Origin: Escherichia coli
GTDB lineage: Bacteria > Pseudomonadota > Gammaproteobacteria > Enterobacterales > Enterobacteriaceae
NCBI RefSeq assembly: GCF_013315695.1
Contig: NZ_CP054353.1
Reading direction: 5' to 3' (one strand)
DNA length: 64,000 nucleotides
The notes under the pieces were generated by a model, which was given only the letters and a program-made list of their open reading frames with translations, was not told the origin of the DNA and ran no database searches. The position numbers were made by a program, and so were the translations under genes. Positions 53,916-55,274 of this stretch are shown piece by piece (the first letter of the stretch is position 1; each line of letters begins with the position of its first letter).

Positions 53916-55274
53916 ATGAAAAGAAAAATTATTCCCGTGCTAATCGGTTGTACGCTCTCTTTCTCTGCCCTGGCGGCACAACCTACGGCTGAGCGCTATG
54001 TCGTCAGTTTTCCAGAAGGCACGCACGTGAACTACGCCGGCGCATTTGCCAGTGCATTCCCGAACGGCCTTCCGGTTGGGATAGGTTCTGGCCTGCTGTT
54101 CACCGGTAAACAGGGCGATGCCCTGACATTCGCAACCATTACCGATCGCGGTCCGAACGCGGATTCACCGAAAGAGGGGAAAAACGAAACTAAAATTTTC
54201 GTTACGCCAGATTTCGCGCCGCTGCTGATGACGATTCGTGTACAAAACGGCAAAGCGGAGGCCATCGATCCCCGTCCTCTGCATGACGATAAAGGCGCGA
54301 TCAACGGTCTGCCGCTGGCAAGCGACGTGATTGGCTCCACCAATGAAGTGGCCTTCAGCGACACGTTACATAGACTGAAGGGGGATAATCGCGGGCTGGA
54401 TACGGAAGGGATCACTCCGGATGGTAAAGGAGGTTACTGGCTGTGCGATGAGTATGGCCCGTTCCTGATTAACATCGACAGTAAAGGGAAAATCCTGGCA
54501 ATCCACGGTCCGCAGGCGGCGGAAGGGGAAAAAGCGATTGCGGGCGGTTTGCCAAATATCCTCAAATGGCGTCAGGCGAACCGCGGCTTTGAAGGCCTCA
54601 CCCGTATGCCGGACGGGCGTATTATTGTCGCCGTGCAAAGTACGCTGGATATCGACGCTAAGAGCAAGAAAAAGGCGCTGTTTACGCGTCTGGTGAGCTT
54701 CGATCCGGCAAGCGGAAAAACCGCGATGTACGGTTATCCTATCGACAGCGCGGCCTACAGCAAAAACAGCGACGCTAAAATCGGAGACATCGTGGCGCTC
54801 GATAACCAGCACATCCTGCTGATCGAACAGGGAAGAGATAAAAACAACAGAATGCGTAACCTGATTTACGAGGTCGATCTCAATAAGGCGAGCGACCTGT
54901 CAGGCTTCGACAAGCCGGGTGAGTATCCGGAGTTTGATGATGAGAAAACCCTGTCACAGCGCGGCATTACCCTTGCGCAGAAAACGCAGGTTGTTGATCT
55001 GCGCTCCTTGGGCTGGCAGCAGGAGAAGGCTGAAGGGTTGGCGCTGATCGACAGCAAAACGCTGGCGGTGGCGAACGATAACGACTTTGGCGTGAAGGTG
55101 GCGATGCAACATCCGGTCGAGGGCAAGACATTCAAGGATTATCGGGTGAACGCGGAAGGAAAGCTGACGCTTGACGACAAGCAGGTTGAAACGACCCTCA
55201 GAGTGAAGCCACTGGAGAAACCGGAGTCTGACAGTGAACTGTGGATTGTGACGCTGCCGGAAGCGTTGAAATAA
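53916..55274 (+). CDS. secreted phytase-like / esterase-like protein
   Basis: Signal peptide MKRKIIPVLIGCTLSFSALAA then a large soluble domain; family assignment from memory. Confidence 0.5.
   Translation: MKRKIIPVLIGCTLSFSALAAQPTAERYVVSFPEGTHVNYAGAFASAFPNGLPVGIGSGLLFTGKQGDALTFATITDRGPNADSPKEGKNETKIFVTPDFAPLLMTIRVQNGKAEAIDPRPLHDDKGAINGLPLASDVIGSTNEVAFSDTLHRLKGDNRGLDTEGITPDGKGGYWLCDEYGPFLINIDSKGKILAIHGPQAAEGEKAIAGGLPNILKWRQANRGFEGLTRMPDGRIIVAVQSTLDIDAKSKKKALFTRLVSFDPASGKTAMYGYPIDSAAYSKNSDAKIGDIVALDNQHILLIEQGRDKNNRMRNLIYEVDLNKASDLSGFDKPGEYPEFDDEKTLSQRGITLAQKTQVVDLRSLGWQQEKAEGLALIDSKTLAVANDNDFGVKVAMQHPVEGKTFKDYRVNAEGKLTLDDKQVETTLRVKPLEKPESDSELWIVTLPEALK

Follow-up and report, generated by a model that had tools for sequence, protein, structure and literature searches.

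A phytase-like gene on the fec island of Escherichia coli and the Pho box of its enterobacterial orthologs

PhoX and Psip1 are exported, PhoB-controlled and Ca-dependent propeller phosphatases for phosphorus (P) scavenging, and some Psip1 homologs carry a fused phytase-like domain (PMC11098088). Proteins annotated to the phytase-like family have themselves been reported under P stress: one is increased in Nodularia under P limitation (log2 fold change of 5.5; PMC9846622), the secreted PtPhos2 of the diatom P. tricornutum shows a P-limitation log2 fold change of 7.4 (PMC7283521), and in Synechococcus WH8102 ‘phytase-like’ proteins belong to the most abundant of the P-stress proteins (PMC11020310). 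Here, we analyzed a gene of this family in a stretch of 64,000 nucleotides of Escherichia coli DNA (NCBI RefSeq assembly GCF_013315695.1, contig NZ_CP054353.1), referred to below as the window. Its island context matches the SRL pathogenicity island (PAI) of Shigella flexneri, in which the gene is orf34 (PMC6980539). The main new result is the presence of a Pho box in the enterobacterial orthologs of this gene. The coding region is as follows.

53901–55274, plus strand: open reading frame (ORF) of 457 amino acids
53916–55274, plus strand: PF13449 (‘phytase-like’) coding sequence of 452 amino acids, based on Pfam, the RefSeq match and homologs

A promoter of the E. coli Pho regulon has, in place of the -35, an 18-bp Pho box made of two CTGTCAT repeats 11 bp apart, with a -10 hexamer approximately 10 nucleotides downstream. 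A Pho-box matrix was built from four E. coli K-12 boxes read in the genome (phoA, CTGTCATAAAGTTGTCAC; phoB, TTTTCATAAATCTGTCAT; and the two pstS boxes), and its best match was sought in the 250 nucleotides upstream of the gene in 80 orthologous loci, with 790 random 250-nucleotide windows from the same loci as a control. In 72 loci, the best match was located 40–65 nucleotides before the ATG, compared with approximately 11% that position by itself would give. The median score was 12.8 bits versus 3.9 bits in the random windows, and 74 of the 80 loci scored above the 95th percentile of the control (8.7 bits) and 47 above the 99th. The 48 distinct site sequences yielded the consensus CTGTCATATTTCTGTCAT, the canonical Pho box, and the box is followed after 10 nucleotides by a -10-like hexamer, the same layout as in K-12 phoA (box, 10 nucleotides, TATAGT) and phoB (box, 10 nucleotides, CATAAT). 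Both box and -10 are conserved, while the sequence upstream of the box could not be aligned between genera. The loci cover Enterobacteriaceae, Erwiniaceae, Yersiniaceae, Pectobacteriaceae, Wohlfahrtiimonas, Tolumonas, and metagenome-assembled genomes (MAGs) of Neisseriaceae and Aeromonadaceae, and the genera with the box include Enterobacter, Pantoea, Buttiauxella, Cedecea, Serratia, Yersinia and Franconibacter. On the basis of the position, scores, consensus and layout of the box and its conservation amid unalignable flanks, the orthologs are very probably activated by PhoB, which agrees with the induction by P limitation in Nodularia, Synechococcus WH8102 and P. tricornutum mentioned above. 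It should be noted that the match was weak or absent in Pectobacterium and Samsonia (for example, CGGTCACAGAACTGACAT), where the box may have decayed independently or regulation may differ.

The corresponding region of the E. coli copy contains the following elements.

53848–53865, plus strand: degenerate Pho-box-like site ATGTCATTTTCCTGACTC, at the position of the canonical box in orthologs
53876–53881, plus strand: -10-like hexamer TATGGT, 10 nucleotides downstream of the Pho-box-like site, recognized by alignment conservation and the phoA/phoB layout
53903–53906, plus strand: putative weak Shine-Dalgarno sequence GGAT within the conserved 5' leader GGATGCTAACAAT, proposed from sequence only

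In the E. coli copy, the first half-site is kept, as are the spacing and the -10. The second half-site departs from the consensus at the near-invariant positions T15 (39 of the 48 distinct sites) and A17 (47 of 48), and 5 nucleotides are inserted directly after the -10. The degenerate half-site was also observed in the four other Escherichia-type copies that were inspected, both chromosomal and plasmid, and Escherichia copies differ from one another in the -10 or in the bases next to it. Because of the degraded second half-site and the insertion, PhoB control of the E. coli copy may have been weakened or lost. No sigma-70 -35/-10 promoter, and no -35 hexamer, was found in 53500–55600. In the literature, no expression data were found for this gene, and it was not mentioned in an RNA-seq paper on BL21/HMS174.

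The ORF at 53916–55274 is a real and intact gene and not a chance ORF, given its 1716 homologs with E ≤ 1e-5 among the candidates scored and a ratio of nonsynonymous to synonymous substitution rates (dN/dS) of approximately 0.1 (0.09–0.11 against orthologs of the Enterobacter group). All 57 of the family columns conserved at ≥85% are kept in its product, which differs by one residue from RefSeq WP_000823243.1 (A376 in the window protein and T in RefSeq). The ATG at 53916, which is the start used by RefSeq/PGAP, is the sole start conserved across the orthologous loci in which a start was assignable (79 of 80). A longer ORF from the ATG at 53901 (MDANN...) was rejected because this codon is absent in most Enterobacter orthologs. 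The product thus has 452 amino acids, or 453 codons with the stop. Antisense ORFs of 127 and 148 amino acids were also noticed inside the gene (54032–54812, minus strand), and their equivalents recur at as many as 50 of the orthologous loci; these ORFs are shadow artifacts of the conserved sense frame and not genes.

A Pfam search assigned the protein to PF13449 (‘Esterase-like activity of phytase’) with 148.6 bits (gathering cut-off 27.6 bits) and E=4.4e-43 over residues 55–391 and profile positions 4–284 of 284, and the RefSeq product name agrees with the name of the Pfam family. No NCBIfam model matched the window protein. Neither the window protein nor any of 109 diverse family members matched PF02333, the model of true beta-propeller phytases (E ≤ 1), and no match to the PhoX models was found among the 109 members at the same threshold. 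The most common weak secondary match was PF06977 (SdiA-regulated/YjiK), which was found below its 21-bit cut-off in 45 of the 109 relatives (best E=3.7e-5) and not in the window protein; other weak hidden Markov model (HMM) matches among relatives were to the NHL, SSL_N and SGL families. A search of PDB with the single window sequence returned no match, and a search with the family profile gave only weak single-blade matches to NHL, Drp35 and YjiK and no solved PF13449 structure. A paper on the Pseudomonas exoproteome did not address the phytase-like family.

The N-terminus of the protein carries an export signal.

53916–53975, plus strand: signal peptide, residues 1–20, MKRKIIPVLIGCTLSFSALA followed by AQP, predicted Sec/signal peptidase I type

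By inspection, without a dedicated predictor, it consists of a basic MKRK region, the hydrophobic core IIPVLIGCTLSFS and an ALA-A cleavage motif at residues 18–21, with cleavage before the last of these. In the AlphaFold (AF2) model, residues 1–20 had a predicted local distance difference test (pLDDT) score of only 55–58, with a helix at 6–16, and the rest of the model was confident. The protein is predicted to be a substrate of signal peptidase I rather than a lipoprotein, since the A-x-A motif is kept in homologs and Cys12 is not; a lipoprotein reading of LIGC (residues 9–12) was rejected because homologs have S, T, A or L in place of Cys12. These results bear on most of what the original prediction, which was made from the sequence alone, had said about the protein. 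Its phytase-like/esterase-like family call is confirmed by Pfam and RefSeq, and the HMM search assigned no different, well-characterized family. The proposed signal peptide is likewise recognized, and ‘secreted’ holds in the sense of predicted export to the periplasm. The ORF was correctly located and its stated length of 453 amino acids counts the stop codon. ‘Phytase/esterase’ holds as a family label and not as a demonstrated activity, nor does the protein belong to the true beta-propeller phytase family.

The AlphaFold model of the protein (pLDDT 95.5) was closest to five-bladed propellers, namely YjiK, glutaminyl cyclase and the Ca-activated nucleotidase SCAN, and its matches also included many propellers of the glycoside hydrolase families GH43, GH62 and GH130. 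Glutaminyl cyclase, SCAN and the GH43/62 enzymes each have five blades, and Bacillus beta-propeller phytase has six. No phytase or PhoX was present in the top 60 structural matches, the model did not show a six-bladed fold closest to Bacillus phytase structures, and a Foldseek search against PDB returned only generic propellers with poor template modeling (TM) scores. The strands assigned by DSSP fit five four-stranded blades plus an N-terminal strand (24–31) and C-terminal strands (417–446). Thus, the model suggests that the protein is a beta-propeller of five blades, extended by additional strands at both termini. When the conservation of the family alignment was set against the DSSP strand positions, a five-fold residue pattern was observed.

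Blade 1: innermost strand starts at G57-S58; loop after the second strand, T76-D-R-G-P-N81
Blade 2: innermost strand starts at D162-x-E164; loop after the second strand, D178-E-Y-G-P182
Blade 3: innermost strand starts at N222-R-G-F-E226; loop after the second strand, Q241-S242
Blade 4: innermost strand starts at K288-x-G-D291; loop after the second strand, E304-Q-G306
Blade 5: innermost strand starts at K371-x-E373-G; loop after the second strand, N387-D-N-D-F391

In each blade, the innermost strand begins at a conserved residue that is polar or acidic (S58, E164, E226, D291 and E373), with conserved basic residues alongside (R78, R223, R258 and K371). The conserved residues retained by the window protein include D77, R78, N81, D162, E164, E179, N222, E226, R258, D291, E304, K371, E373, D388 and D390. 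In the modeled fold, they would be expected to ring one mouth of the central channel and form an active site binding both metal and anion.

Considering the export, the ancestral PhoB promoter, the ring of Asp/Glu and Arg/Lys residues, the presence of SCAN among the nearest folds and the nuclease and nucleotidase domains fused to relatives, we lean toward the reading that the protein is a periplasmic phosphoesterase that depends on metal and serves to scavenge phosphate, for which nucleotide- or diester-type substrates seem likelier than phytate. The ancestral gene would be switched on by PhoB under phosphate starvation, and the product would be exported by Sec to the periplasm, with approximately 430 residues remaining after signal cleavage. 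The conserved residues at one channel mouth would hold a metal center (Ca2+ or other) that binds an anionic substrate, and metal-dependent hydrolysis of phosphoesters would free phosphate from periplasmic organophosphates. Among 38 long relatives, fusions to a 5'-nucleotidase were found in three and to a metallophosphatase in two; other fused domains were a ParB-like nuclease, LTD, the NadN C-terminal domain and cell-surface anchors, and a ‘choice-of-anchor I’ domain was present in 12 of the 38. Several points weigh against this proposal. Since no biochemical assay of any PF13449 protein was found in the literature, in which the family exists as annotation only, we infer its metal dependence, phosphoesterase chemistry and substrate class, and family membership by itself gives no function because neither an experimentally characterized member nor a solved structure was found. 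The clustering at the channel mouth was derived from strand positions and general propeller topology and not from the coordinates of the model. The closest solved fold, YjiK, provides no mechanistic lead because its function is unknown, and glutaminyl cyclase is no phosphatase. With regard to the promoter, related sequences are not independent, and 72 of 80 loci overstates the number of independent observations, which is mitigated by the 48 distinct sites and the fully divergent flanks. The site in the window itself scores 5.5 bits, below the 95th percentile of the random windows (8.7 bits), compared with 10.3 bits in Enterobacter and 22–24.5 bits for the four K-12 boxes from which the matrix was built, and the Pho-box pattern occurs in the window at chance frequency (9 found versus 8.9 expected).

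The same evidence can be used to judge what else the gene might be. A genuine Ca2+-dependent beta-propeller phytase hydrolyzing myo-inositol hexakisphosphate is what the Pfam and RefSeq names imply; the Pho boxes, as a link to P starvation, would be compatible with it, and a genome note on Pantoea brenneri counts the ortholog as a ‘phytase encoding sequence’ (PMC12697123). However, neither the profile searches nor the structural matches recovered the true phytases, and we regard this explanation as very improbable. The structural neighbors could also suit a propeller with a non-phosphoester role, such as a lactonase, cyclase, lyase or ligand binder, whose link to phosphate is indirect: besides glutaminyl cyclase, the nearest folds include NHL, SMP30/gluconolactonase, strictosidine-synthase-like and glycoside hydrolase/phosphorylase propellers, the weak HMM matches point to the SdiA-regulated, NHL, SSL_N and SGL families, and PF13449 has no known activity. 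Such a role appears unlikely considering that the canonical Pho box is kept across distant genera, that relatives carry fused 5'-nucleotidase, metallophosphatase and nuclease domains, that in cyanobacteria and a diatom P limitation induces proteins annotated to the family, and that the conserved residues are mostly Asp/Glu with Arg/Lys.

A different kind of explanation concerns only the copy in E. coli and Shigella, which might be a silent passenger amid insertion sequence (IS) debris, with a decayed promoter and no contribution, whatever the orthologs do. The two altered near-invariant positions of the second half-site, the 5-nucleotide insertion, the variable -10 region, the lack of a detected sigma-70 promoter and the flanking IS remnants are in line with this possibility. 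Yet 2190 genomes carry the gene as an intact ORF with at least 99% identity, it has been re-mobilized onto plasmids, all of its conserved residues are kept, and the promoter region still has the first half-site, the spacing and the -10. Moreover, real Pho boxes tolerate one weak half-site, as in phoE and phnC. Hence, we consider it quite unlikely that the copy is merely carried along. The phosphoesterase reading can be widened to the whole family: PF13449 could be an unrecognized class of PhoB-controlled, exported, five-bladed-propeller phosphohydrolases that includes an E. coli accessory gene, with nucleotides or phosphodiesters as likely substrates and a Ca2+ site in the central channel. We advance this broader statement tentatively, as a possibility that we would not yet bet on.

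With regard to its distribution, the gene together with its promoter was found at ≥99% identity in 2190 of 5426 complete E. coli genomes (2238 chromosomal and 66 plasmid placements). All E. coli copies were at least 99% identical, and some of the plasmid copies lie between IS1 elements. The extent of similarity to other genera is shown below.

53761–55280, plus strand: region homologous at the DNA level to chromosomal orthologous loci in the Enterobacter group (blastn, 83–86.6% identity)

This homology, with approximately 85% nucleotide and 90% amino acid identity, stops no more than 6 nucleotides from the stop codon. Because it is confined to 53761–55280, the captured fragment consists of one gene and its own promoter. 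The data thus support a horizontally acquired single-gene cargo on a mosaic fec (SRL-type) island of E. coli and Shigella. The horizontal acquisition suggested by the original prediction is therefore supported by the island location, the limited extent of homology, the ≥99% identity and the plasmid copies; the location that it gave, between an IS3-family remnant and an IS66 element, is likewise correct. In Pantoea, the ortholog is often found on large plasmids (49 plasmid records; for example, a 548-kb plasmid of P. agglomerans HJS002), so that mobile or accessory replicons carry the gene beyond Escherichia as well. Copies with 99% and 78% identity to the E. coli protein and enterobacterial-type promoters were also present in contigs labeled as an ‘uncultured Ruminococcaceae’ MAG and ‘Chryseobacterium sp. 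18061’, respectively, which are probably contamination or mis-binning in public assemblies.

The orthologs are monocistronic, and those of Pantoea and Serratia have long upstream intergenic regions and unrelated neighbors. Clustering of the neighbors in 79 orthologous loci revealed no neighbor family common to different clades: in Enterobacter, the neighbors are an aldehyde dehydrogenase, a CobW-family protein and a CstA-family transporter, and in Buttiauxella a chemoreceptor. The three neighbor clusters that appeared most ‘conserved’ were rejected as antisense shadow ORFs within the gene.

In the window, the gene is flanked by the following features.

53308–53438, minus strand: IS5/IS1182-family transposase remnant, farther upstream (RefSeq annotation of matching loci, mapped to the window)
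53503–53634, minus strand: IS3-family transposase remnant in the upstream flank (RefSeq annotation of matching loci, mapped to the window)
55396–55473, minus strand: DUF6404-family gene remnant of 78 nucleotides between the coding sequence and IS66 (annotation in most matching loci)
55476–57764, minus strand: complete IS66-family element, recognized by its 22-nucleotide terminal inverted repeats and intact tnpA/B/C
55476–55497 and 57743–57764: the 22-nucleotide terminal inverted repeats of IS66
55513–56898, 56948–57295 and 57292–57693: tnpC, tnpB and tnpA of IS66, respectively

The gene is located beside fecIRABCDE and IS66 and is near-identical to orf34 of the SRL PAI, which places it on an SRL-type fec island. 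The gene order is fecABCDE-fecR-fecI, ykiE, IS1F, IS debris, a YmgB/AriR-like gene, IS debris, the phytase-like gene and IS66; beyond IS66 come two genes for zinc-ribbon proteins and one of the inovirus-Gp2 family, and capU, virK and lpxM lie farther upstream on the same island. The overlapping zinc-ribbon ORFs (173 and 135 amino acids) and the inovirus Gp2-family gene (58028–59716, minus strand) correspond to orf38–39 of the SRL PAI. Another single-gene cargo of the same island is an ORF of 97 amino acids of the YmgB/AriR family (biofilm/acid-resistance regulator; 52890–53183, plus strand), which stands alone in a patch of 32–35% GC content and is flanked by the IS3 and IS5 remnants. Positions 44614–64000 of the window are 99.87% identical to the locus of strain MSB1_4I. 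Comparison of approximately 25700–45300 revealed that a grp (glycyl-radical propanediol microcompartment) block of approximately 20 kb, which in MSB1_4I separates the integrase region from the IS66/ISEc23 region, is missing from the window; the fec island is thus a mosaic of strain-variable composition. The IS1F copy next to fecI (51481–52164) has a 14-bp deletion relative to MSB1_4I that splits insB (ORFs 51675–51980 and 51952–52164), and this copy is probably inactive for that reason. In addition, an 82-bp stretch with the IS66 terminal repeat is identical at 57683–57764 and 37351–37432, the latter marking the end of another IS66-family element.

If the phosphoesterase reading and its extension to the family were true, PF13449 would be a class distinct from PhoA, PhoX, PhoD, PafA, Psip1 and the beta-propeller phytases, and the fec island would give approximately 40% of E. 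coli strains an extra, so far unlisted enzyme for phosphate scavenging in the periplasm. The ‘phytase’ label, which is used in genome papers to count ‘phytase genes’, is without support from sequence or fold. The Pho box provides a cheap and concrete hypothesis for a family whose secreted proteins rank with those most strongly induced by P stress in cyanobacteria and diatoms and which has no known activity, and the degraded box of the copy that has spread through E. coli and Shigella offers a natural test case of regulatory decay after horizontal transfer. Genome annotation is little changed, as the gene is already catalogued as an E. coli/Shigella accessory gene and the family call stands.

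Comparison with described systems places the protein as follows. It is the same protein as orf34 of the SRL PAI of S. flexneri 2a YSH6000 (WP_000823243.1) but for the one residue noted above, and nothing substantive differs. With the Bacillus beta-propeller phytases (PF02333; PhyC/TS-Phy), it shares export, a propeller fold, an abundance of conserved acidic residues and a probable part in phosphate nutrition, whereas no profile match was found (0 of 109 members) and these phytases were not among the top structural matches. PhoX and Psip1 also differ, being six-bladed proteins of other families with Fe/Ca cofactors, without sequence match and outside the top structural matches. The resemblance to the C-terminal domain of YjiK (PF06977, PDB 3QQZ) is structural only, with sub-threshold sequence scores among relatives, and the window protein is approximately 190 residues longer than this domain, with insertions and terminal extensions. 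The human Ca-activated nucleotidase SCAN-1/CANT1 (PDB 2H2N) has a near fold and no detectable sequence similarity to it.

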